Of a stretch of 40,751 nucleotides of DNA, positions 50 to 37,590 are shown piece by piece. Position 1 is the first letter of the stretch. Every line of letters starts with the position of its first letter. The position numbers and the translations under genes are program-made. The notes under the pieces were generated by a model. The model was given only the letters and a program-made list of their open reading frames with translations. It was not told where the DNA came from and did not search any database. This stretch comes from Escherichia phage HK022: sequence record NC_002166.1; one strand, written 5' to 3'.

Positions 50-535
50 ATGGCAGATAAACGAATCCGTTCAGACAGTTCGGCGGCAGCGGTTCAGGCC
101 ATGAAAAATGCAGCTGTGGACACCATCGATCCGCCGTCCCATGCAGGTTTGGAGAAAAAAGCCGAACCATTCTGGCATGACAATATCAGATCGAAAGCTC
201 TGGACAGCTGGACGCCTGCCGACCTTCTAGCCGCCGTAGAACTTGCTAATAATCAGCTCTATATCACCGTTTTACGCAAGGATTTACGCAAAGAAGAGCG
301 CATACGCGGGGAGGAGCGAGACGAAGGCCTTATAAAAGACCTCCGCAAGCAAATTGTTGAGCTACAACGAACTATCCTGGCTCAGCGCCGCGACCTCCAG
401 ATCCACTCCCACGCAACCAACGGCGAAAGTCGCGACCAGAAGAAACGTAATCAGAACGATCGTGATGCACGGAATACCAAAAACGAGCATCAGGACCAGG
501 ACGATAACCTGATCGCCTTTCCCAAGCACGGATAA
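50..535 (+). CDS. terminase small subunit
   Basis: 161-aa ORF directly upstream of the large terminase; charged N-terminal half and acidic C-terminal tail typical of P27-type small terminases; ATG at 50. Confidence 0.75.
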   Translation: MADKRIRSDSSAAAVQAMKNAAVDTIDPPSHAGLEKKAEPFWHDNIRSKALDSWTPADLLAAVELANNQLYITVLRKDLRKEERIRGEERDEGLIKDLRKQIVELQRTILAQRRDLQIHSHATNGESRDQKKRNQNDRDARNTKNEHQDQDDNLIAFPKHG

Positions 536-11989: not shown

Positions 11990-12700
11990 ATGCGTCAGAA
12001 AACCATCGATGCGATTATGGCGCATGCTGCAGCTGAATATCCTCGTGAGTGCTGCGGTGTGGTGGCACAGAAGAGCCGGGTAGAGAAATATTTTCCATGT
12101 CGTAACCTCGCTACCGAGCCGACAGAACATTTTCACCTGTCGCCAGAAGACTATGCAGCTGCTGAGGACTGGGGTACGGTGATCGCCATCGTTCACAGTC
12201 ACCCTGACGCCACAACGCAGCCGAGCGAACTGGATAAAGCGCAATGCGACGCAACGCTTTTACCCTGGCATATTGTGAGCTGGCCGGATGGGGATTTACG
12301 CACCATCCAGCCGCGCGGAGAACTGCCACTGCTGGAGCGTCCGTTTGTGCTTGGACACTTCGACTGCTGGGGGCTGGTAATGAGCTATTTCCGGCAAACG
12401 CATGGTATCGAGCTCCACGATTACCGGGTGGATTATCCCTGGTGGGAAAACGCCTATCCGGACAATTTTTATCAGGATTGCTGGTATGAATGCGGATTCA
12501 GGGAGTTTGACGGCCCGCCTCAGGAAGGGGACCTCGTCATCATGCAGGTGCAGGCCGATAAGTGGAATCATGCCGGGATTTTACTGGAGGGTAACATGCT
12601 GCTGCACCACCTGTACGGACATCTGAGCCAGCGCGTGCCGTATGGGGGCTACTGGCAGGAAAGGACGATGAAGATTCTTAGACATCAGAATTTTATTTAA
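11990..12700 (+). CDS. K: tail assembly protein K (JAMM/MPN + NlpC/P60 domains)
   Basis: 236 aa; JAMM motif HSHPDATTQPSELD; downstream Cys in GHFDCWGLV and His in NHAGILL consistent with NlpC/P60. Confidence 0.85.
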   Translation: MRQKTIDAIMAHAAAEYPRECCGVVAQKSRVEKYFPCRNLATEPTEHFHLSPEDYAAAEDWGTVIAIVHSHPDATTQPSELDKAQCDATLLPWHIVSWPDGDLRTIQPRGELPLLERPFVLGHFDCWGLVMSYFRQTHGIELHDYRVDYPWWENAYPDNFYQDCWYECGFREFDGPPQEGDLVIMQVQADKWNHAGILLEGNMLLHHLYGHLSQRVPYGGYWQERTMKILRHQNFI

Positions 12701-12747
12701 CAAACTGTCACTGATACTATCGTGTAGCACACAGCAAGGAGAACGAT

Positions 12748-12972
12748 ATGTATACAGTTGGGTTTGGTTGGATCTTCGTCGGTATTTTTATTGGGTTAAT
12801 TCTCTGGTTTTTCATCAACCGCGCCAGCGTCAGAGCGAACAGGCAGGTTGAATTACTTGAGTCTATCGACCAGAAATTATCAAAAATAGTAGATCCAAAC
12901 TTCGAGGCAAATAACAAAGACCAGTCGAAAGAAAACTACCTTGAAGAAGCAAGGAAAAAAGCTGGGCTTTGA
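12748..12972 (+). CDS. small membrane protein (moron between K and I)
   Basis: 74 aa; AAGGAG RBS 6 nt upstream; one predicted TM helix (VGFGWIFVGIFIGLILWFFI) then charged tail; followed by its own terminator; lower GC than flanking tail genes. Confidence 0.5.
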   Translation: MYTVGFGWIFVGIFIGLILWFFINRASVRANRQVELLESIDQKLSKIVDPNFEANNKDQSKENYLEEARKKAGL

Positions 12973-12986
12973 GAGCGTAAATTAAT

Positions 12987-13010
12987 AAACCACCTACGGG
13001 TGGTTTTTTT
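12987..13010 (+). terminator. rho-independent terminator
   Basis: AAACCACC-tacg-GGTGGTTT hairpin plus T-run. Confidence 0.65.
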
Positions 13011-13021
13011 ATGGGGGCAGC

Positions 13022-13630
13022 ATGCAAGAGGTAATGACAAGAATTGAGCTAAGTGGCGTGCTAGCTAAGACATATGGAAGGGTTCATCACCGTCTGGTTC
13101 GCACTACTGCTGAAGCCATTAATGCACTCGCGAAAACCATCAATGGATTCGAGAAATTCTTAAACACAAGCAAAGCCCGAGGGCTGACGTATGCCGTTTA
13201 TAGAGATAAAAAGAATATTGGCGTTGATGATCTCGGCTTTCCCGTCACCGGCGAAGTGATCCGGATTGTCCCTGTAGTAATAGGGAGTAAAAAGGCTGGT
13301 CTTTTGCAGACGATCTTGGGGGCCGTGCTTATTACTGCTGCTGTGTTGACTGGACCCGGCGGTATTGGCGCTGCTTTCGCTGCTGGTGGATTGACGGGGT
13401 TTGCTGCTGCCACTGGTGCCTCGTTGGTCCTCGGTGGGGTTATTCAGCTGCTTTCACCGCAGCCATCAGGCATAGCCAGTAAACAAAGCGCAGATAACCG
13501 TGCATCGTATGCGTTTGGCGGGGTAACCAACACTGCAGCGCAAGGCTACCCGGTGCCTCTGCTTTATGGTAAGCGTCGAATCGGCGGAGCGATTATTTCT
13601 GCCGGAATTTATGTCGAAGATCAGCAGTGA
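13022..13630 (+). CDS. I: tail assembly protein I
   Basis: 202 aa; hydrophobic Gly/Ala-rich central segment; lambda gpI-like position between K and J. Confidence 0.8.
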   Translation: MQEVMTRIELSGVLAKTYGRVHHRLVRTTAEAINALAKTINGFEKFLNTSKARGLTYAVYRDKKNIGVDDLGFPVTGEVIRIVPVVIGSKKAGLLQTILGAVLITAAVLTGPGGIGAAFAAGGLTGFAAATGASLVLGGVIQLLSPQPSGIASKQSADNRASYAFGGVTNTAAQGYPVPLLYGKRRIGGAIISAGIYVEDQQ

Positions 13631-13714
13631 TACATAATGTGGGGAGCTAATATGAATAACGGGTACTTTGGTTTAAGTAGGGATAAAAAGCAGGTTGTGT
13701 TTTATGCGCCACTA

Positions 13715-13746
13715 TTCCAATTAAAGAAAGGCCGCATCTGCGGCCT
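13715..13746 (-). terminator. rho-independent terminator (minus strand)
   Basis: GGCCGC-agat-GCGGCC hairpin followed on the minus strand by TTTCTTTAATT; lies just 3' of the minus-strand ORF. Confidence 0.5.
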
Positions 13747-13750
13747 GGGG

Positions 13751-13972
13751 CTACTTATTCATGAATTGCTTCAGTTCAGTGGCAAGTTTTTCAAAAGGTG
13801 GATGGCTATACTGAGTAAGCTCTATAAGTAACTGGTTTTTATCTGAGTCAGGCAATCTGGCAAACAACAATCCAAATGCTAGCTTAAGAGCGGTAACCTC
13901 ATTTGCCACATCGGATACATCATTGCAATTAGTGGTTAGTTTTAGCCCGTCAATATGTCGAATCTGATTCAC
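13751..13972 (-). CDS. hypothetical protein (73 aa), opposite-strand moron between I and J
   Basis: GTG start at 13972 with AGGA 6 nt upstream; helical, mildly acidic protein; convergent with flanking tail genes. Confidence 0.45.
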   Translation of the reverse strand: MNQIRHIDGLKLTTNCNDVSDVANEVTALKLAFGLLFARLPDSDKNQLLIELTQYSHPPFEKLATELKQFMNK

Positions 13973-14101
13973 ATATATTCCTTATCCAGAGGTAATCAGC
14001 CATCCCTCCGTACCAGAGTGCGCCAGTGTCCCACCACTGGCGGGCTGAGTTATCACATTAACCAGGGTTTCCGATAAGCAACACCCTGATATTCAAACAG
14101 T

Positions 14102-14126
14102 AGCCACCTTCGGGTGGCTTTTTTTA
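14102..14126 (+). terminator. rho-independent terminator-like hairpin before J
   Basis: AGCCACC-ttcg-GGTGGCT plus T7; near-identical to the hairpin at 12987..13010. Confidence 0.55.
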
Positions 14127-14136
14127 TGGGCGCAAT

Positions 14137-17100
14137 ATGGCTACAGATAAAGTGTTAAAGGGCCGCAAGGGCGGCAGCTCCAGTTCCCGAACTCCTACCG
14201 AACAGCCTGATGATCTGCAATCTGTAGCGAAGGCAAAAATCCTCGTTGCGCTTGGGGAAGGTGAGTTTGCAGGGCAGCTCACCGGCAAAGATATCTACCT
14301 GGACGGAACAGCGCTGGAGAATGCTGACGGCTCCCAAAACTTCAGCGGGGTAACGTGGGAGTTTCGCGCGGGAACTCAGGCGCAAAAATATATTCAGGGT
14401 ATTCCCGGTACCGAAAACGAGATCAGCGTAGGAACTGAGGTATCAAGTGCCACAGCCTGGACGCGCACGTTTACCAATACGCAGCTTTCAGCAGTTCGCC
14501 TGCGTCTTAAATGGCCCTCGCTTTTCAAACAGGAGGACGACGGCGATCTGGTGGGTTACTCGGTCAATTATGCAATTGACCTGCAGACGGACGGCGGCGC
14601 ATGGCAGACGGTACTCAATACCAGCGTGACCGGAAAAACGACGTCTGGTTATGAGCGCAGCCATCGTATTGATTTACCGCAGGCTGGCAGCACTTGGACA
14701 ATCCGCCTGCGTAAGATTACCTCTGACGCCAACAGCGCGAAGATCGGCGACACGATGACGCTGCAGAGCTTCACTGAGGTGATTGACGCCAAGTTACGAT
14801 ATCCAAACACAGCGCTACTCTACATCGAATTCGATTCAAGTCAGTTTAACGGCTCTATCCCGCAGATCTCCTGCGAGCCCCGCGGCCGTGTTATCCGCGT
14901 TCCAGATACCTACGACCCTGAAACCCGCACTTATAGCGGTACATGGACCGGTGCGTTTAAGTGGGCATGGACGGATAACCCTGCGTGGATTTTTTACGAT
15001 CTGGTTGTTTCTGACCGGTTCGGCCTCGGGCACCGTTTGACCGCTGCGAATATTGATAAATGGACGCTTTATCAGGTTGCCCAGTATTGTGATCAGATGG
15101 TACCAGACGGCAAAGGGGGCAACGGTACCGAACCACGTTATACCTGCAACGTGTACATCCAGGACCGAAACGACGCTTATACAGTCCTGCGTGATTTTGC
15201 GGCCATATTCCGTGGCATGACGTACTGGGGAGGCGATCAGATCGTTGCTCTGGCCGATATGCCCCGAGATGTTGATTACAGCTACACGCGCGCCAACGTT
15301 GTTGGCGGTCGCTTCACCTATTCAAGCAGCACCACGAAAACCCGCTACACCACAGCGCTGGTTTCATGGTCAGACCCGGGTAACGCTTATGCCGACGCGA
15401 TGGAGCCGGTATTTGAGCAGGCGCTGGTAGCGCGATACGGCTTCAATCAGCTGGAAATGACAGCCATCGGCTGCACCAGGCAGTCAGAAGCGAACCGAAA
15501 GGGGCGCTGGGGCATTCTCACCAACAACAAGGATCGCGTTGTTTCGTTTGATGTCGGGCTGGACGGAAACATTCCGCAGCCTGGCTACATCATCGCCGTG
15601 GCAGACGAGCTGCTTTCCGGAAAGGTTATGGGCGGCCGCATCAGCGCCGTTAACGGTCGCGTTATCAAACTTGACCGCGTAGCTGATGCAGCACCAGGTG
15701 ATCGCCTTATTCTCAACCTTCCCTCCGGAGCGTCGCAGAGCAGGACCATTCAGGCCGTGAACGGGGAATCAGTCACAGTCACCACGGCATACAGTGAGAC
15801 GCCACAGGCCGAAGCTGTTTGGGTGGTTGAATCTGACGAGCTCTACGCGCAGCAGTATCGAGTTGTCAGCGTTTCCGATAACAATGATGGCACTTTCTCG
15901 ATTACCGGCGCATGGCACGACCCGGATAAATATGCCCGTATCGATACCGGAGCCATCATTGACCAACGGCCGGTGAGCGTGATCCCGCCGGGCAACCAGT
16001 CGCCGCCTGCGAATATCGTGATCAGCTCGTTTTCCGTGGTTCAGCAAAATATCAGCGTCGAAACAATGCGCGTGAGCTGGTACCAGGCGCAGAACGCTAT
16101 CGCCTATGAAGCACAATGGCGCCGCAACGACGGGAACTGGGTTAACGTGCCGCGCACCTCCACCACGTCATTCGACGTCCCGGGGATTTATGCCGGGCGC
16201 TACCTGGTGCGGGTGCGCGCAATCAATGCCGCAGAAATTTCATCCGGATGGGGCTATTCAGAAGAGAAAACGCTGACGGGTAAAGTGGGCAATCCACCGA
16301 AGCCGGTTGGCTTTATCGCCTCTGAAAACGTGGTGTTCGGTATCGAGCTGAACTGGGGATTCCCGGCGAATACCGACGACACGCTGAAGACGGAAATTCA
16401 GTACAGCCTGACCGGTACTGAAGACGATGCCATGCTGCTGGCCGATGTGCCTTACCCGCAGCGCAAATATCAGCAGATGGGCCTTAAGGCTGGGCAGATT
16501 TTCTGGTACCGCGCGCAGCTGGTTGACCGCAGCGGTAACGAGTCAGGTTATACCGGCTGGGTTCGTGGGCAGGCCAGTATCGATGTTTCTGACATCACAG
16601 ATGTGATCCTTGAAGACATCAAAGGGTCTGAGACGTTCAAAGACCTGATCGAGAACGCTGTGGACAGCAATGAAAAAATTGCTGGCATGGCTGACGACAT
16701 CAAACAGGCCAACGATGAACTTGAACTCCAGGCGCAGGAAATCGCAAAAAACGCGCAGGACATCGGGCAGGTTCAGACCAGCGTTAATGAGCTTTCTAGC
16801 ACGGTCGGTGATGTGTCGTCTTCTCTCTCAGATCTTGAGCAGACTGTTGCGACTGCTGATACCGCACTGGGCCAGCGAATCGACAGCATCAGCGTATCTA
16901 TGGACGGCATGACGGGCGGGGTGAAGAACTCTGCTATCGCAATTATCCAGAACGGGCTGGCACAAGTGGCTACGCGTAAATCGTTGTCAGCTTCGGTCGC
17001 AGGGAACAGTGCGCAGCTGGATCGTATTGATGAGGTAATCGTTAACGAGAAGGAGGCAACGGCGCGTTCTCTGCTGAGCCTGCAGACGGATGTCAACGGC

Positions 17101-17688
17101 AACAAGGCATCCATAAACAGCCTGAATCAGACGTTCTCCGACTATCAGCAGGCTACGGCCACGCAGATAAACGGCATAACGGCGACGGTGAACGGGAATA
17201 CCTCCGCCATCACCACTAACGCTCAGGCGATAGCCAACGTTAATGGCGACCTCAGCGCGATGTACAACATCAAGGTTGGCGTTTCCAGCAACGGTCAGTA
17301 TTACGCCGCGGGGATGGGTATCGGCGTGGAGAATACGCCATCCGGCATGCAGTCGCAGGTTATCTTCCTGGCTGATCGCTTCGCCGTCACCACGGCAGCC
17401 GGTAACAGCGTGGCTTTGCCGTTTGTGATCCAGAATGGACAGACATTCATCCGGGCCAGTTTCATCCAGGACGGCACTATCAGCAACGCAAAGATTGGTA
17501 ATTTTATCCAGTCGAACAATTATGTTGCTGGTTCTGCTGGCTGGAAGCTTGATAAAGGGGGGACGTTTGAGAACTACGGTTCGACTGCTGGTGAGGGAGC
17601 CATGAAACTGACAAATCAGACGATCAGCGTCAAAGATGGCAGTAATGTTCTTAGGGTGCAGGTTGGCCGATTAACGGGAGTATTCTGA
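14137..17688 (+). CDS. J: host specificity protein J (central tail fibre / tail tip)
   Basis: 1183-aa ORF after I; size and position match lambda gpJ; C-terminal part likely receptor-binding. Confidence 0.9.
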   Translation: MATDKVLKGRKGGSSSSRTPTEQPDDLQSVAKAKILVALGEGEFAGQLTGKDIYLDGTALENADGSQNFSGVTWEFRAGTQAQKYIQGIPGTENEISVGTEVSSATAWTRTFTNTQLSAVRLRLKWPSLFKQEDDGDLVGYSVNYAIDLQTDGGAWQTVLNTSVTGKTTSGYERSHRIDLPQAGSTWTIRLRKITSDANSAKIGDTMTLQSFTEVIDAKLRYPNTALLYIEFDSSQFNGSIPQISCEPRGRVIRVPDTYDPETRTYSGTWTGAFKWAWTDNPAWIFYDLVVSDRFGLGHRLTAANIDKWTLYQVAQYCDQMVPDGKGGNGTEPRYTCNVYIQDRNDAYTVLRDFAAIFRGMTYWGGDQIVALADMPRDVDYSYTRANVVGGRFTYSSSTTKTRYTTALVSWSDPGNAYADAMEPVFEQALVARYGFNQLEMTAIGCTRQSEANRKGRWGILTNNKDRVVSFDVGLDGNIPQPGYIIAVADELLSGKVMGGRISAVNGRVIKLDRVADAAPGDRLILNLPSGASQSRTIQAVNGESVTVTTAYSETPQAEAVWVVESDELYAQQYRVVSVSDNNDGTFSITGAWHDPDKYARIDTGAIIDQRPVSVIPPGNQSPPANIVISSFSVVQQNISVETMRVSWYQAQNAIAYEAQWRRNDGNWVNVPRTSTTSFDVPGIYAGRYLVRVRAINAAEISSGWGYSEEKTLTGKVGNPPKPVGFIASENVVFGIELNWGFPANTDDTLKTEIQYSLTGTEDDAMLLADVPYPQRKYQQMGLKAGQIFWYRAQLVDRSGNESGYTGWVRGQASIDVSDITDVILEDIKGSETFKDLIENAVDSNEKIAGMADDIKQANDELELQAQEIAKNAQDIGQVQTSVNELSSTVGDVSSSLSDLEQTVATADTALGQRIDSISVSMDGMTGGVKNSAIAIIQNGLAQVATRKSLSASVAGNSAQLDRIDEVIVNEKEATARSLLSLQTDVNGNKASINSLNQTFSDYQQATATQINGITATVNGNTSAITTNAQAIANVNGDLSAMYNIKVGVSSNGQYYAAGMGIGVENTPSGMQSQVIFLADRFAVTTAAGNSVALPFVIQNGQTFIRASFIQDGTISNAKIGNFIQSNNYVAGSAGWKLDKGGTFENYGSTAGEGAMKLTNQTISVKDGSNVLRVQVGRLTGVF

Positions 17689-18737: not shown

Positions 18738-18971
18738 ATGAAAAGGCTAATTATCTGCATAGCGGGCGCTTTAATGCTGTCTGGTTGCGCTGGTGTACTT
18801 GAGAAACAGAAACCGATTTGCAGCGGCACGGCATATATGGGTGGCCATGAGAATACCGTTATGATTTACGCCGTTCGAAAGCAAAACAACCAGACGCAAT
18901 ACCGGGCCGGATATCCCTTTAACTGGCGCTGGGTAAGTGCGAACACATTCACAAGCACGACATGTAAATAA
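18738..18971 (+). CDS. cor: small lipoprotein, Cor-like (candidate superinfection exclusion)
   Basis: 77 aa; signal peptide with lipobox LSGC (Cys17); AT-rich upstream region; followed by a terminator; same position as cor in phi80/N15-type phages. Confidence 0.6.
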   Translation: MKRLIICIAGALMLSGCAGVLEKQKPICSGTAYMGGHENTVMIYAVRKQNNQTQYRAGYPFNWRWVSANTFTSTTCK

Positions 18972-20501: not shown

Positions 20502-20730
20502 TCAGGTCACTAATACTATCTAAGTAGTTGATTCATAGTGACTGGATATGTTGCGTTTTGTCGCATTATGTAGTCTATCATTTAACCACAGATTAGTGTA
20601 ATGCGATGATTTTTAAGTGATTAATGTTATTTTGTCATCCTTTAGGTGAATAAGTTGTATATTTAAAATCTCTTTAATTATCAGTAAATTAATGTAAGTA
20701 GGTCATTATTAGTCAAAATAAAATCATTTG
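20502..20730. other. attP region with lambda-type Int arm sites
   Basis: P-arm CAGGTCACTA (20503..20512) and inverted ATAGTGACTG (20535..20544); IHF-like site between them; P'-arm AGGTCATTAT / TAGTCAAAAT / AAATCATTTG at 20700..20730; spacing places the core near 20639..20653. Confidence 0.65.
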
Positions 20731-21797
20731 TCGATTTCAATTTTGTCCCATTCCCGTCCACGGCTGTCCCTATACCGCGCCGCCATTGAATCTGATTTAT
20801 GCCCGAGAAGACGTTGAGCAAACTTATCGCCAATCTGGTTCCGGTATAGCCTCGCTGACAGGCTACGCAGTTCATGGAATGTTGGCGGGTTTCCATCAAA
20901 TGAGAGTCCAGATGCATTTCTCGCCTTTGTAAAATACTTTGATACTGTTTTCGGGGAAAGCGGATCGTGATGCTTTGATGCGATTATAGTTTCACTGCTG
21001 CTGGCCTCCCTGCATTGCTGTAGTGTATCAGCCAATGAGATATTGAGCGCGTCAATCGTTAGCGTTAGTGGAATGGCGAGTTTAGCCCCTGTTTTACTCT
21101 GTTCAATGTGAAGATGGTTGTCGTTTATGTCTGACCATTTCATTCTGCACAAATCGCCTACTCTCTGCCCTGTAACGACAGCCAAATCCATTGCCAGTCT
21201 CAGCCAGATTGGGAGCGGTTCGGCTGCATGGTATATCGCGACATATTCATTAGCTGTCAGTCTTGAACGCCTTACTTCTGATTTTGCTGTGCGGGTTGCT
21301 GTTACCGGATTCGTAGCCACATGCCCCTCGGCTATTGCCTCACGAAAAACGTCAACAAGGGTTGACCTGATCAATTTTGCGGAAGCCGATTTGCCTTCTG
21401 CTACGTAGGTGTTTAGCATTGCTGCCACCTCTTTCGTTGATATGTCAGCGAGCGGTTTGTCCGGCAATTTTCTTCGGATTGCTCTGATTTTGCTGGCGTA
21501 GTCGAGTAGAGTTTTCGGCCTGATACCCCTCTCGCTGAGGATTGTTTCATATCGGTCAAGCCACGCATGAAGAGTGATTGCGTCAGCGCCTTTAATTCTG
21601 TCTATCAGTGACTCACGCCTGTTCCCGGATAGCAACTCAATGTTGGCCTGTATAGCTTCAGTGATTGCGATTCGCCTGTCTCGGCCTAATCCAAACTCTT
21701 TACCCGTCCTTGGGTCCCTGTAGCAGTAATATCCATTGTTTCTTATATAAAGGTTAGGGGGTAAATCCCGGCGCTCATGACTTCGCCTTCTTCCCAT
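20724..21797 (-). CDS. int: tyrosine integrase (lambda Int family)
   Basis: 357 aa; N-terminal arm-binding region and C-terminal catalytic region closely resemble lambda Int as recalled (e.g. HELRSLSARLY, LLGHKSD). Confidence 0.95.
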   Translation of the reverse strand: MGRRRSHERRDLPPNLYIRNNGYYCYRDPRTGKEFGLGRDRRIAITEAIQANIELLSGNRRESLIDRIKGADAITLHAWLDRYETILSERGIRPKTLLDYASKIRAIRRKLPDKPLADISTKEVAAMLNTYVAEGKSASAKLIRSTLVDVFREAIAEGHVATNPVTATRTAKSEVRRSRLTANEYVAIYHAAEPLPIWLRLAMDLAVVTGQRVGDLCRMKWSDINDNHLHIEQSKTGAKLAIPLTLTIDALNISLADTLQQCREASSSETIIASKHHDPLSPKTVSKYFTKARNASGLSFDGNPPTFHELRSLSARLYRNQIGDKFAQRLLGHKSDSMAARYRDSRGREWDKIEIDK

Positions 21798-26600: not shown

Positions 26601-27657
26601 GGCTTTGTTGAATAAATCAGATTTCGGGTAAGTCTCCCCCGTAGCGGGTTGTGTTTTCAGGCAATACGCACGCTTTCAGGCATACCTGCTTTCGTCATTT
26701 TGTTCAGCGCTCGTACCAGGGCCATAGCCTCTGCAACCTGACCATCGTAGTCACGCAGTGTCAGTGAACCCCCGAACAGCTGTTTTACCCGGTACATCGC
26801 CGTTTCCGCTATCGAGCGACGGTTGTAATCTGTTGTCCATTTCCACCGCGCATTACTCCCGGTCATTCGCTGATTAGCCACTGCACGGTTACGGTCTGCA
26901 TATTCACCGGGCCAGTAACCCGCACCTTTTCGGGGAGGGATAAGCGCGCTGATTTTCTTACGCCGCAGTTCATCGTGACATAGCCGGGTATCGTAAGCGC
27001 CATCGGCGGCGGCTGACCTGATTTTCCGGTGGGTTTGCCGGATTAACCCGGGGAAGGCCTCTGAGTCCGTAACGTTGTTCAGCGACAGGTCAGCGCAGAT
27101 GATTTCATGTGTTTTACTGTCAACGGCGAGATGCAGCTTACGCCAGATACGGCGGCGTTCCTGGCCATGCTTTTTGACTTTCCACTCGCCTTCACCGAAG
27201 ACCTTCAGCCCGGTGGAATCAATTACCAGGTGTGCGATTTCACCCCGGGTGGGCGTTTTGAAACTGACATTAACCGACTTTGCCCGCCTGCTGACACAGC
27301 TGTAATCCGGGCAGCGTAGCGGAACGTTCATCAGAGAAAAAATGGAATCAATAAAGCCCTGCGCAGCGCGCAGGGTCAGCCTGAATACGCGTTTAATGAC
27401 CAGCACAGTCGTGATGGCAAGGTCAGAATAGCGCTGAGGTCTGCCTCGTGAAGAAGGTGTTGCTGACTCATACCAGGCCTGAATAGCTTCATCATCCAGC
27501 CAGAAAGTTATGGAGCCACGGTTGATGAGGGCTTTATTGTAGGTGGGCCAGTTGGTGATTTTGAACTTTTGCTTTGCCACGGAACGGTCTGCGTTGTCGG
27601 GAAGATACGTGATCTGATCCTTCAACTCAGCAAAAGTTCGATTTATTCAACAAAGCC
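26601..27657 (-). mobile_element. IS903-like insertion sequence (IS5 family), 1057 bp
   Basis: Perfect 18-bp terminal inverted repeats GGCTTTGTTGAATAAATC (26601..26618 and 27640..27657); flanked by 9-bp direct repeat TTGGAATGA (26592..26600 and 27658..27666). Confidence 0.9.
26657..27580 (-). CDS. IS903-type transposase
   Basis: 307 aa from GTG at 27580 (track extends to a TTG at 27625); ends ...MTKAGMPESVRIA as in IS903 transposase. Confidence 0.85.
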   Translation of the reverse strand: MAKQKFKITNWPTYNKALINRGSITFWLDDEAIQAWYESATPSSRGRPQRYSDLAITTVLVIKRVFRLTLRAAQGFIDSIFSLMNVPLRCPDYSCVSRRAKSVNVSFKTPTRGEIAHLVIDSTGLKVFGEGEWKVKKHGQERRRIWRKLHLAVDSKTHEIICADLSLNNVTDSEAFPGLIRQTHRKIRSAAADGAYDTRLCHDELRRKKISALIPPRKGAGYWPGEYADRNRAVANQRMTGSNARWKWTTDYNRRSIAETAMYRVKQLFGGSLTLRDYDGQVAEAMALVRALNKMTKAGMPESVRIA

Positions 27658-28421: not shown

Positions 28422-29129
28422 TTATCCGAATCGCTTGTAATCGATTGACTGCCTAATGAGGACTTTGGCTAGAATGTGAAGTTGCTCTTCTTCACCTTCT
28501 TCTATGTACCATCGATCATAAGCGGCATTGTCAGAGATGACGGCAAGCCTGTTCTTTTGCATTTGCAGGCGCTTAACGTGCATTGTTTTCCCGTATACAA
28601 ACACATAAATGCCATCGCCATCAAAACAGGTTATGGATACATCAACAAAGATCTCATCTCCCGGATTGATGGTTCCCTCCATGCTGTCACCGCGAACCGT
28701 GATGACTTTTACGCTTTCCTGTGGCCTTCCATTAAATAAAATTCTTGCCTGCTCGGTCGTATATTCAATTGCTCTTATCTTTTCTATAAATTCATTGGAA
28801 ACCATGGTTCCTGGCCCGGCGCTCGCCTGAACATCCAATACATCAACACGATAATAATCATTTGATCTTGATAGATGATTTACCGTGATACCGTCATCAT
28901 CAGCATAGCCATGCAGATATGCAGCAGTAGTTCCCAGCACCGAAGCCAGAGATTCCATCTTGTCTTTTCTTGGTATTGACTCCCCGTTGAACCATTTACT
29001 AATGGCTTTTGGTGTGACCTTAAGCCTGACAGCTAAATCAGCCTGCCTACCATGCAAAGGTAATCCCGCTTTATCACAGGCCAGCGCAAGCCTCTGCGAG
29101 AAAGTTTCACGCTCTTTCTGTTGAACCAT
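28422..29129 (-). CDS. cI: CI-type repressor (HTH + S24 LexA-like peptidase domain)
   Basis: 235 aa from ATG 29129; N-terminal HTH, Ala-Gly cleavage site (ASAGPG), catalytic Ser in GDSMEG and Lys in HVKRL; longer track ORF would overlap pR and cro. Confidence 0.85.
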   Translation of the reverse strand: MVQQKERETFSQRLALACDKAGLPLHGRQADLAVRLKVTPKAISKWFNGESIPRKDKMESLASVLGTTAAYLHGYADDDGITVNHLSRSNDYYRVDVLDVQASAGPGTMVSNEFIEKIRAIEYTTEQARILFNGRPQESVKVITVRGDSMEGTINPGDEIFVDVSITCFDGDGIYVFVYGKTMHVKRLQMQKNRLAVISDNAAYDRWYIEEGEEEQLHILAKVLIRQSIDYKRFG

Positions 29130-29136
29130 AAGTTCA
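29122..29136. promoter_or_regulatory. operator-like palindrome TGAACCATAAGTTCA (copy 1)
   Basis: 15-bp sequence with perfect TGAAC/GTTCA arms; centre overlaps the cI ATG. Confidence 0.45.
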
Positions 29137-29149
29137 ACTATATTAGGTA

Positions 29150-29178
29150 TTGACTGTACTATCAGTTCCGTCATAATA
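29150..29178 (+). promoter_or_regulatory. candidate pR promoter
   Basis: TTGACT (-35), 16-17 nt spacer, CATAAT/ATAATA (-10), 30 nt upstream of cro ATG. Confidence 0.55.
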
Positions 29179-29193
29179 TGAACCATAAGTTCA
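29179..29193. promoter_or_regulatory. operator-like palindrome TGAACCATAAGTTCA (copy 2)
   Basis: Identical 15-mer directly downstream of the pR -10 element. Confidence 0.45.
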
Positions 29194-29208
29194 CCACAGG
29201 AGAGAAGC

Positions 29209-29439
29209 ATGAACGAAGTTACGTTTGGAGAAGTTATCAAATCCGTTCGAGTTTCTGTTGTGGCTGATGTTTGTGGACTTACGCCAAAAGCCATCTATAA
29301 GTGGCTTGAGCGTGGTTCTCTGCCGCGTACCGAGTTCACTGGTGAAACCGAATATGCGGATAAGATCGCCAAGGCATCAGGCGGCAAGTACTCAGCAGCA
29401 CAGATTCGCCGTATCGGTAAACAGCAGTTTGTTATGTAA
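29209..29439 (+). CDS. cro: Cro-like repressor
   Basis: 76 aa; AGGAGA RBS; HTH (GLTPKAIYKWLERG); divergent from cI across the operator region. Confidence 0.7.
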   Translation: MNEVTFGEVIKSVRVSVVADVCGLTPKAIYKWLERGSLPRTEFTGETEYADKIAKASGGKYSAAQIRRIGKQQFVM

Positions 29440-36029: not shown

Positions 36030-36214
36030 ACGCCACAATTCAAACGATACCAGAACTGCTTATCCAGACACGAGGCAATCAGACCGAAGTGGCGAGGATG
36101 CTTTCCTGCGCAAGAGGAACAGTGCTCAAGTACAACCGAGACAGCAAAGGCGAGCGTCACGTAATAGTTAACGGCGTCCTGATGGTCAAACAGGGCAAGA
36201 GGGGAAGACCATGA
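36026..36214 (+). CDS. ninH: NinH-like small DNA-binding protein
   Basis: 62 aa; GNQTEVARML.C.RGTV motif as in lambda NinH. Confidence 0.7.
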   Translation: MNATIQTIPELLIQTRGNQTEVARMLSCARGTVLKYNRDSKGERHVIVNGVLMVKQGKRGRP

Positions 36215-36834
36215 GACTCGAAAGCGTAGCTAAATTTCACTCGCCAAAAAGCCCGATGATGAGCGACTCACCACGGACCACGGCTTCTGACTCTCTTTCC
36301 GGTACTGATGTGATGGCTGCTATGGGGATGGCGCAATCACAAGCCGGATTCGGAATGGCTGCATTCTGCGGTAAGCATGAACTCAGCCAGAACGACAAAC
36401 AAAAGGCTATCAACTATCTGATGCAATTTGCACACAAGGTATCGGGGAAATACCGTGGTGTGGCAAAGCTTGAAGGAAATACTAAGGCAAAGGTACTGCA
36501 AGTTCTCGCAACATTCGCTTATGCGGATTATTGCCGTAGTGCCGCGACACCGGGCGCAAGATGCAGAGATTGCCACGGTACTGGCCGGGCCGTTGATATT
36601 GCCAAAACAGAGCAGTGGGGGAGAGTTGTCGAGAAAGAGTGCGGAAGATGCAAAGGCGTCGGCTATTCCAGGATGCCAGCAAGCGCCGCATATCGCGCTG
36701 TAACGATGCTAATCCCAAACCTTACCCAACCCACCTGGTCACGCACTGTTAAGCCGCTGTATGACGCTCTGGTGGTGCAATGCCACAAGGAAGAGTCAAT
36801 CGCAGACAACATTTTGAATGCGGTCGCACGTTAG
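36211..36834 (+). CDS. Q: late gene antiterminator Q
   Basis: 207 aa; begins MRLESVAKFHSPKSPMMSDSPR... with Cys4 zinc motif (C..C...C..C); matches lambda Q almost residue for residue as recalled. Confidence 0.9.
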   Translation: MRLESVAKFHSPKSPMMSDSPRTTASDSLSGTDVMAAMGMAQSQAGFGMAAFCGKHELSQNDKQKAINYLMQFAHKVSGKYRGVAKLEGNTKAKVLQVLATFAYADYCRSAATPGARCRDCHGTGRAVDIAKTEQWGRVVEKECGRCKGVGYSRMPASAAYRAVTMLIPNLTQPTWSRTVKPLYDALVVQCHKEESIADNILNAVAR

Positions 36835-37266: not shown

Positions 37267-37590
37267 ATGAAGATGCCAGAAAAAAATGACCTGTTAGCCG
37301 CCATTCTCGCGGCAAAGGAACAAGGCATCGGGGCAATCCTTGCGTTTGCAATGGCGTACCTTCGCGGCAGATATAATGGCGGTGCGTTTACAAAAACAGT
37401 AATCGACGCAACGATGTGCGCCATTATCGCCTGGTTCATTCGTGACCTTCTCGGCTTCGCCGGACTAAGTAGCAATCTCGCTTATATAACGAGCGTGTTT
37501 ATCGGCTACATCGGTACTGACTCGATTGGTTCGCTTATCAAACGCTTCGCTGCTAAAAAAGCCGGAGTAGAAGATGGTGGAAATCAATAA
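37267..37590 (+). CDS. S: holin S (class I, dual-start motif MKM)
   Basis: 107 aa; Met1-Lys2-Met3 dual start; three TM segments; matches lambda S as recalled. Confidence 0.9.

Follow-up and report, generated by a model that had tools for sequence, protein, structure and literature searches.

Is a small gene that reads against the tail operon of a temperate phage an oddity, or one case of a recognised arrangement? The question is raised by Escherichia phage HK022 (NC_002166.1), whose 40,751 nucleotides (nt), analysed as a whole and called the window here, form the complete genome of an HK97-like temperate coliphage. Between its tail genes I and J, at positions 13631..14136, lies an open reading frame (ORF) of 73 amino acids (aa) on the minus strand, together with a conserved upstream leader and a short ORF on the late-operon strand, here called the micro-ORF and its product the micro-protein. 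The evidence supports reading window 13631..14126 as a moron cassette of the HK97 gene 23 type, that is, as a kind already known rather than an oddity; this kind has been recognised since the annotation of the HK97 genome, and GenBank lists HK97 gene 23 as 'Gp23, reverse moron product' and ES18 gene 25 as a 'possible moron'. As to how the cassette works, we think it probable that a mobile reverse moron of this type, situated in a Q-dependent late operon, is expressed by the host polymerase, is shut off late, and is accompanied by a micro-protein encoded on the late strand.

An inserted cassette between tail genes I and J

The interval 13631..14136 consists of approximately 500 base pairs (bp) of extra DNA with a low guanine-plus-cytosine (GC) content. 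Over its first 12 kb the window is 99.7-99.8% identical to HK140 and mEpX2, yet the I-J gap of HK140 is only 52 nt and contains no cassette. The GC content is 0.40-0.42 in 13600..14000 and 0.53-0.58 in tail genes K, I and J. Because the near-identical HK140 has so short a gap, and given the dip in GC content, we regard the cassette as an insertion. A first-pass annotation of this DNA had placed the gene between I and J and against the late (tail) operon, and both statements are borne out: the left-hand ORF belongs to Pfam Lambda_tail_I, the right-hand ORF is the counterpart of the GpJ family, and the 73-aa ORF between them has the opposite orientation.

Morons are characterised by added DNA, deviant composition, their own promoter and terminator, and expression in the prophage (PMC3594210). 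The present cassette consists of extra DNA between genes that are adjacent in relatives, deviates in base composition and has its own terminator; with the precedent of HK97, the moron label given to it earlier is well placed. The 506-bp region has no close DNA match in 50,697 phage records, its comparison with E. coli genomes yielded a partial leader match only, and tblastn against phages gave nothing useful.

The 73-aa gene and its terminator

The minus-strand ORF is present as claimed in the ORF list, with a GTG start, and the proposed AGGA ribosome-binding site (RBS) corresponds to AAGGA at 13983..13979, which precedes the GTG by 6 nt. When 5.8 billion proteins were searched, a family of 14 clusters at 70-97% identity was recovered, all unnamed, of which 11 are exactly 73 aa long, and a profile search with the protein gave only 15 matches among 1.84 billion representatives. 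Relative to the most distant members, the proportion of differing sites is approximately 0.85 for synonymous (pS) and 0.20 for non-synonymous (pN) positions. Since a length-conserved family is combined with saturated synonymous and few non-synonymous changes, the pattern of substitution shows the 73-aa ORF to be a real gene. 

The AlphaFold2 model is a bundle of three helices (19-38, 42-54 and 58-70) behind a disordered N-terminus, with a mean predicted local distance difference test score (pLDDT) of 79. Homology searches found the family clusters but no functional match: the protein gave a sub-threshold match only in Pfam, families of unknown function only in PHROGs, and no match in PADLOC or PDB sequence profiles, and a Foldseek search of the model on PDB and BFVD returned nothing better than E=0.6.

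The cassette is mobile. Members of the family occupy the I/J site (window, loci L007-L010 and L139-L141), the M/L site in Pseudescherichia vulneris (L137), and, upstream of the packaging module or small terminase gene, a site flanked by a 485-aa gene and HNH/terminase genes (L001-L006). At all three insertion sites the gene lies on the strand opposite to its neighbours.

The terminator claimed at the 3' end of the gene was found by a terminator scan of 12600..14400, which returned seven sites where 1.8 were expected. Its stem, 13746..13729 on the minus strand, reads AGGCCGCAGATGCGGCCT and is followed by the T-rich TTCTTTAATT; cassettes of the L001 type have a hairpin at the same place. The scan likewise confirmed the terminator-like hairpin before J on the plus strand, whose stem 14102..14119 (AGCCACCTTCGGGTGGCT) is followed by TTTTTTT, ending 10 nt before the J start at 14137. 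This second hairpin covaries between cassette lineages (GCCACC..GGTGGC versus GCCGC..GCGGC) and is absent from the copies in lysis cassettes. As HK140 carries an identical hairpin before J, it did not simply arrive with the 73-aa gene: it either predates the cassette at this site or was left behind when a cassette was lost. Very similar plus-strand hairpins occur at 12987..13013 (CCACCTACGGGTGG) and 14102..14129 (CCACCTTCGGGTGG); in both cases TTTTTTATGGG comes next and then a tail gene starts, I after the first hairpin and J after the second. The two look like recurrent punctuation of the late operon, or like scars or targets of moron exchange.

A conserved leader and candidate promoter

The approximately 125 nt upstream of the 73-aa ORF form a conserved promoter-plus-leader module (elements in Table 1). 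Between the window cassette and the most distant cassette type this region is nearly invariant, whereas the coding region is at about 70%; a 28-nt core of the element occurs once in the window and in none of 100 shuffles. A T-A-N-N-N-T hexamer, TAATGT in the window, stands 6 or 7 nt upstream of the sequence TCAGCC in 96 of 98 genuine unique copies, and the spacing of this -10-like hexamer would place the start of transcription at TCAGCC, which is why we predict the start there.

The clearest constraint on RNA structure was found in leader hairpin 2 by means of an alignment (A7) of 32 leader sequences, including copies retrieved by a different anchor. Both partners vary in five of the eight pairs, pairing holds in 96% of cells, and the covariation score was reached by none of 500 shuffles. 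One pair is U.G in 13 sequences, U-A in 11 and C-G in eight; since U.G would be a C.A mismatch on the plus strand, the hairpin belongs to the messenger RNA of the gene carried behind the leader, hereafter the cargo. Covariation of this kind shows hairpin 2 to form on the cargo strand. Stem 3 has a few compensatory changes and many G.U pairs, in its inner four pairs. The GGCTGA in its loop is the exact complement of TCAGCC and may pair with it; both are invariant in alignment A7, with rare variants elsewhere, and so offer no covariation. In the predicted minimum-free-energy fold, TCAGCC/GGCTGA stacks on hairpin 2 and the Shine-Dalgarno sequence is open.

Rfam 15 gave no leader match at E<=1 on either strand of 12500..15000, where its only hit was a terminator-like fragment elsewhere, and no gathering-level match anywhere in the window. 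We found no description of the leader or the micro-protein in the literature, although earlier genome papers could hold a remark on the shared upstream sequence. The invariant leader segment GGCUGAUUACCUCU (13986..14001, minus strand) resembles the 3' end of 16S ribosomal RNA, GGUUGGAUCACCUCC, and pairs with an upstream Shine-Dalgarno-like GGAGGG; the resemblance may be the coincidence of a stem that sequesters a Shine-Dalgarno sequence.

Other readings of these elements were considered and rejected. A LexA box at TACTG...CAG has the wrong spacing (CTG-N9-CAG, not N10). A leader peptide from the ATG in GGGATGGCTGA is contradicted by lineages that lost the ATG and retained GGCTGA, and control by CsrA through GGA motifs by the GGA of GGGATGG, which is not conserved where GGCTGA is. 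HK97, L065 and the lysis-cassette copies do not preserve an RNA helix between CAGGGT and ACCCTG, and for that reason these bases more likely act as DNA. Finally, a small plus-strand RNA ending at the 14102..14126 terminator would fold well, but the commonest form of hairpin 2 would give it a C.A mismatch, and it is also disfavoured because the scan found no plus-strand promoter.

Spread of the leader, cargo diversity and orientation

The first-pass annotation called an antisense gene inside a late operon unusual, a view that does not hold. At least 140 cassettes with the same leader were found across Enterobacterales, and the leader is carried, unannotated, by 225 of 5426 complete E. coli genomes, those of strains NC101 and NRG 857C among them. 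A 19-nt leader string occurs in more than 119 IMG/VR contigs, and another string of 20 nt in 40 species-representative genomes, a set that covers Escherichia, Citrobacter, Enterobacter, Pantoea, Erwinia, Pectobacterium, Photorhabdus and Xenorhabdus. Named phages with the leader are HK97, ES18, HK633, mEp043, mEp213, mEp506 and SPN3UB.

The cargo start codon stands at a fixed distance from the leader. BLAST leaves the ORFs that follow in more than 20 unconnected groups, mostly of 65-95 aa with a few of 154-210 aa. Profile comparison (hhalign) relates the 73-aa family to only one other cargo group, and the idea that all cargo proteins form one superfamily was rejected on that ground. Of the cargo groups, one is DUF1883, one resembles a retropepsin-like aspartyl protease, and the others have no match. 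Among the large cargos, a 210-aa protein behind the same leader at the I/J site of E. coli MSB1_9D (NZ_LR890349.1; L011, 3321..3953) has no match in Pfam, PHROG or PADLOC; others are the 154-aa retropepsin-like aspartyl protease (L024) and a 169-aa PHROG 3983 protein (L065).

Orientation is strongly biased. Around 140 cassettes, 494 long flanking ORFs lie on the strand opposite to the cargo and 34 on the same strand, and none of the 135 cassettes having flanking ORFs has all of them on the cargo strand. Sites at which leader cassettes are found include I/J, M/L, the region upstream of the terminase genes and, within the lysis cassette, the gap that separates a DUF1327/YdfR gene from the lysozyme gene.

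In the copies from Xenorhabdus and Photorhabdus (L142-L144, L147-L151, L153, L160, L162, L166, L168, L175, L177 and L180) an AT-rich linker replaces hairpin 2, and TCAGCC, GGCTGA and stem 3 are retained. These copies have a distinct, strongly conserved upstream block, CCACCCCAT...GGGCGTCCGTGGGGTGA, and one genome can hold several: Xenorhabdus sp. BG5 has them on three contigs, and X. ehlersii has two.

A micro-protein gene on the late-operon strand

Cassette types remain homologous for approximately 100 nt past the terminator of the 73-aa gene, and this stretch encodes the micro-ORF. In the window, GGGGAG stands 5 nt before its ATG at 13652, and its 3' end overlaps the 73-aa gene by 81 nt. Micro-ORFs of 27-59 aa adjoin the 73-aa gene in five diverged subtypes and at three insertion sites. 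Only the first 25 aa or so of the product are conserved (M..Y.GLS.DKK.VVFYAP.F.LK), and the first 25 codons of the five subtypes are MNNGYFGLSRDKKQVVFYAPLFQLK, MDNEYFGLSSDKKQVVFYAPIFKLK, MDKSYMRLSEDKKMVVFYAPKFRLK, MQKVYLGLDKGKKAVVFYASIFKIK and MKKAYFGLSEDKKSVVFYAPKFLLK. Between subtypes the raw pN/pS ranges from 0.13 to 0.58, and stops interrupt both other frames. Codon-level comparison thus shows the micro-ORF to be a real gene under purifying selection, and it illustrates that gene callers miss part of such cassettes. As the promoter scan of 12600..14400 found no promoter-like site upstream of it, the late-operon transcript is the only visible message for the micro-protein.

Other cassettes have other forward genes. 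Among 102 unique cassettes, 30 forward ORFs start with MTLEQRVEALE and 12 are the micro-ORF. The ORFs of the first kind (L012, L018, L023, L029, L030, L072 and others) share these roughly 11 DUF1327/YdfR-like residues and have unrelated C-terminal parts; the variable unit may be the C-terminus of the forward gene plus the reverse gene, set between two conserved flanks.

Proposed mechanism

We infer a promoter and transcription start, expression in the lysogen, late shut-off and an interaction between the two proteins, in the following scheme. Transcription of the minus strand would start at approximately 14048-14050 from a weak promoter depending mainly on its -10 element. The message would have a 5' leader of about 75 nt, comprising a 5'-terminal TCAGCC able to pair with the GGCTGA loop, the covarying hairpin, the short stem and an exposed Shine-Dalgarno sequence. 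Host RNA polymerase would transcribe the 73-aa gene while the late operon is silent, namely in the lysogen and just after DNA entry; the expression in the lysogen, already suspected in the first-pass annotation, is proposed by analogy with the systems compared below. Once Q is on, antiterminated polymerases would pass head-on through the cassette, and this late transcription would lower the reverse gene via transcriptional interference and antisense pairing. The micro-protein would be made from the late transcript only. Each protein would then be the mark of one of two opposite phage states, and the likeliest role of the micro-protein is to assist or to oppose the 73-aa protein.

A wider claim is advanced only tentatively, and we would sooner doubt it than rely on it: that a portable promoter with a structured 5' untranslated region, a 'reverse-moron leader' joined to a two-state pair of cargo and micro-protein, is both undescribed and widespread. 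If true, the leader would let temperate phages of enterobacteria confine the expression of exchangeable small accessory genes to times when the late operon is silent. Its untranslated region would hold a 5'-terminal helix or pseudoknot besides the covarying hairpin, and in the window cassette the partner of the cargo, a micro-protein of roughly 25 aa, would be translated from the late transcript alone. Taken alone, the 73-aa gene is one more prophage accessory gene of a recognised kind; the wider point is that one control module stands before unrelated groups of small genes, nearly always antisense in late operons, from Escherichia to Xenorhabdus. The leader could serve as a sequence handle for phage genes expressed in lysogeny, candidate exclusion, defence or host-modifying factors among them, as its cargo genes are too small and too diverse for detection by homology. 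The cassette would also be a compact test case for switch-off by convergent late transcription.

Several observations weigh against the proposed mechanism. The search for a minus-strand promoter yielded the conserved -10-like hexamer but no consensus sigma-70 site in 12600..14400, and the best -35 match to go with TAATGT has two to three of six positions; the promoter is either weak or dependent on a further factor. The invariance of TCAGCC and GGCTGA fits sequence-specific recognition at least as well as pairing, and conservation of the leader could stem partly from frequent recombination between phages instead of RNA function. In more distant relatives of the 73-aa gene the forward neighbours are different and the micro-ORF is missing, so the micro-protein may be linked to the gene by descent rather than by function. 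The searches of Pfam, PHROGs, PADLOC and PDB, and of PDB and BFVD with Foldseek, gave no homology or fold that indicates a function. Lastly, phi80 Tai/Ati, the model system discussed below, lacks the conserved leader and has no sequence similarity to the window cassette.

Alternative explanations

The explanation that survives best is a specific version of the proposed mechanism and not its opponent, although we hold it to be somewhat unlikely. Here the cassette would be a defence and self-immunity pair like Tai/Ati or BstA, with a 73-aa protein that is made in the lysogen and blocks incoming phages by binding one of their components, and a micro-protein that neutralises it and so allows the resident phage to finish its own lytic cycle. 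Such a pair would have the observed layout, a reverse gene plus a small late-strand gene in the Q operon; both genes recur side by side at three insertion sites, the remaining accessory genes of the tail region look like genes for superinfection exclusion, and the leader cargo proteins are small, diverse and fast-evolving. However, no PADLOC or other defence-family match was obtained, and comparison with TaiEcA and AtiEcA revealed no significant similarity, a 16-residue patch reaching E=0.013 in a single comparison. In addition, the phi80 genes diverge from overlapping 5' ends whereas those of the window converge, and the distant relatives of the 73-aa gene lack a micro-ORF.

Conservation of the leader bears on a second explanation, which we consider unlikely: that the leader is a recombination 'linker' plus a plain promoter for the swapping of cargo, with its RNA role limited to the RBS. 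The leader is indeed about 90% identical between cassettes whose coding regions are synonymously saturated, as recent exchange would give, unrelated cargo groups share it, and the MTLEQRVEALE N-terminus, present in 30 of 102 cassettes, could be a second flank. Copies in Xenorhabdus and Photorhabdus even do without hairpin 2. Where hairpin 2 exists, however, its pairing is kept through many compensatory changes across genera, for which recombination alone is insufficient, and from Escherichia to Xenorhabdus neither GGCTGA nor TCAGCC varies, in contrast to the sequence that separates them.

It is improbable, in our judgement, that the 73-aa protein is an early anti-defence or host-takeover factor, made at DNA entry, inhibiting a host defence or function and turned off late. 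A promoter recognised by the host would presumably also fire on incoming DNA, the predicted small helical fold without enzymatic motifs is typical of phage inhibitors, and the diversity of the cargo fits an arms race. The strictly antisense position in late operons agrees better with a gene that is turned off during virion production than with early timing, and the protein has no similarity to known inhibitors. To our knowledge, lambdoid phages keep anti-defence genes in early operons, not antisense inside tail operons, and this too counts against an early role.

Two small convergent genes that overlap by 81 nt and are inherited together might recall an addiction (toxin-antitoxin-like) module, in which one small protein is toxic and the other, or antisense RNA from the overlap, neutralises it and stabilises the prophage. 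This is very improbable: the forward gene has no promoter-like site on the plus strand and would not be co-expressed in the lysogen, the overlap is not a constant feature (in L137 and L139 the micro-ORF ends at the terminator or short of it), the 73-aa product is predicted to be a soluble bundle of three helices and not a type I membrane peptide, and neither Rfam nor Pfam gave a toxin-antitoxin match.

That the minus-strand ORF is no gene and the region only RNA or intergenic punctuation of the late operon can hardly be right, even though HK140 has the plus-strand hairpin without a cassette and homology and fold searches assign the ORF no function, for this reading is already contradicted by the substitution pattern (pS about 0.85, pN about 0.20), by the 73-aa length in 11 of 14 clusters, by a Shine-Dalgarno sequence conserved at fixed spacing and by a confident three-helix model.

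Neighbouring genes

Landmarks of the window are given in Table 1 together with the elements of the cassette. The YebO-like gene, approximately 700 bp upstream of the cassette, belongs to the family of the HK97 gp15 superinfection-exclusion protein and encodes a membrane protein; in HK140 a 113-aa lipoprotein-like gene takes its place. The Cor homologue had no Pfam match. Because these two accessory genes of the tail region resemble superinfection-exclusion genes, our best guess for the 73-aa protein, made with low confidence, is a small binding protein that protects the lysogen against other phages. The DDE transposase ORF of the early region represents an insertion sequence inside the phage genome.

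Table 1 Features of the cassette and landmarks of the window.
Feature	Position	Strand	Details and basis
Small terminase gene	50..535		
YebO-like forward moron, between K and I	12748..12972	+	74 aa; Pfam PF13974 E=1.8e-12; PHROG 5031
Terminator of YebO-like moron	12987..13006	+	
Tail assembly gene I, left flank	13022..13630	+	Pfam PF06805 Lambda_tail_I E=2e-6; gene order kept in homologous loci
Micro-protein gene	13652..13831	+	59 aa; 64 aa if starting at ATG 13637
Intrinsic terminator of 73-aa gene, stem 13746..13729	13719..13746	-	Terminator scan
73-aa gene, GTG start	13751..13972	-	ORF list, family, substitution pattern, AlphaFold2 model
Shine-Dalgarno AAGGA of 73-aa gene	13979..13983	-	Sequence; same position before all cargo genes
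Leader stem 3 (GGAGG/CCTCT), loop with GGCTGA (14001..13996)	13986..14009	-	Compensatory changes
Leader hairpin 2, CGCCAGTG-GTGGGA-CACTGGCG	14021..14042	-	Covariation
Invariant TCAGCC (14048..14043), predicted transcription start	14043..14050	-	Strong conservation begins here; can pair with GGCTGA loop
-10-like hexamer TAATGT, candidate promoter of reverse gene	14055..14060	-	T-A-N-N-N-T conservation
Upstream block CTACTG-N9-CAGGG; its inverted CTG...CAG has the centre about 45 nt before TCAGCC	14084..14103	-	Kept in two sequence variants differing inside
Terminator-like hairpin and T-run before J RBS and start	14102..14126	+	Terminator scan
Tail tip/host specificity gene J, right flank	14137..17688	+	1183-aa ORF; 1183-aa equivalent in L007 with GpJ Pfam families
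Cor homologue	18738..18971	+	77 aa; 79% identical to phi80 Cor superinfection-exclusion lipoprotein
Integrase	20724..21797	-	
DDE transposase ORF, early region	26657..27625	-	PF13737, PF01609; about 800 bp from CI-like repressor gene
CI-like repressor	28422..29294	-	
Q	36211..36834		
Holin	37267..37590		

Comparison with known systems

HK97 gene 23 with gene 22 (NC_002167 14475..14975) has the same I/J site and the same antisense orientation as the window cassette. The window leader is 88.5% identical to HK97 15023..15133 over 111 nt, the same plus-strand hairpin stands before J, and, as in the window, reverse and forward genes overlap at the 3' end of the former. However, the loop of hairpin 2 is one base shorter in HK97, and the forward partner, gp22, has 120 aa and is not the micro-protein. 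Between HK97 gp23 and the 73-aa protein no relation was detectable, with an hhalign probability of 0.35% for the gp23-type cluster and a weak 25-residue patch only in BLASTP. The window cassette is therefore of the HK97 gene 23 cassette type but not of its protein family. Salmonella phage ES18 gene 25 with gene 24 (DUF1327), located between M and L, is again a small antisense gene, behind a leader that is 85% identical to that of the window over 141 nt. A plus-strand terminator lies upstream of the reverse gene and a small forward gene on its other side; cargo and forward partner differ from those of the window.

The HK97 gp15 moron is likewise a small accessory gene with its own terminator in a tail operon of this phage group, but it differs from the window cassette in its forward orientation, its membrane protein product and its control region. 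Lambda bor is antisense to the late genes and expressed in the lysogen from its own promoter, and it lies where the late operon ends and not among the tail genes; its protein is unrelated to the 73-aa protein. In ST64B, STMMW_20121 is antisense to lytic genes, has its own promoter and is transcribed in nearly all conditions (PMC7067206). Its orientation is that of the window gene, its protein is unrelated, and no copy of the leader was found in ST64B.

The phi80 gene taiEcA lies in reverse orientation within the Q operon, is constitutive in the lysogen and is reduced when Q is expressed (PMC11364771). Its small late-strand neighbour AtiEcA counteracts TaiEcA in what was termed a 'noncontiguous operon' (He et al. 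2024, PMC11364771), and Tai systems block tail assembly of other phages via the C-terminus of J or the tail needle (PMC11364771). The layout, a reverse gene in a Q-controlled late operon with an adjacent small late-strand gene, is that of the window, except that the phi80 genes diverge from overlapping 5' ends and the window pair is convergent. For sequence comparison, TaiEcA was taken as the phi80 204-aa ORF (44365..44979, minus strand) by size and position only. The 73-aa protein (13754..13972, minus strand) aligned with it as LFARLPDSDKNQLLIE versus LFGR----DKNKLLIE (10/16, E=0.013), a similarity too short for homology, and the micro-protein gave no BLASTP alignment with the phi80 76-aa ORF. 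Since neither phi80 nor ST64B carries the leader, and the phi80 proteins are unrelated, both serve as analogies and not as evidence of membership. As an analogy, phi80 TaiEcA/AtiEcA offers the best experimentally supported model for how the window cassette may behave.

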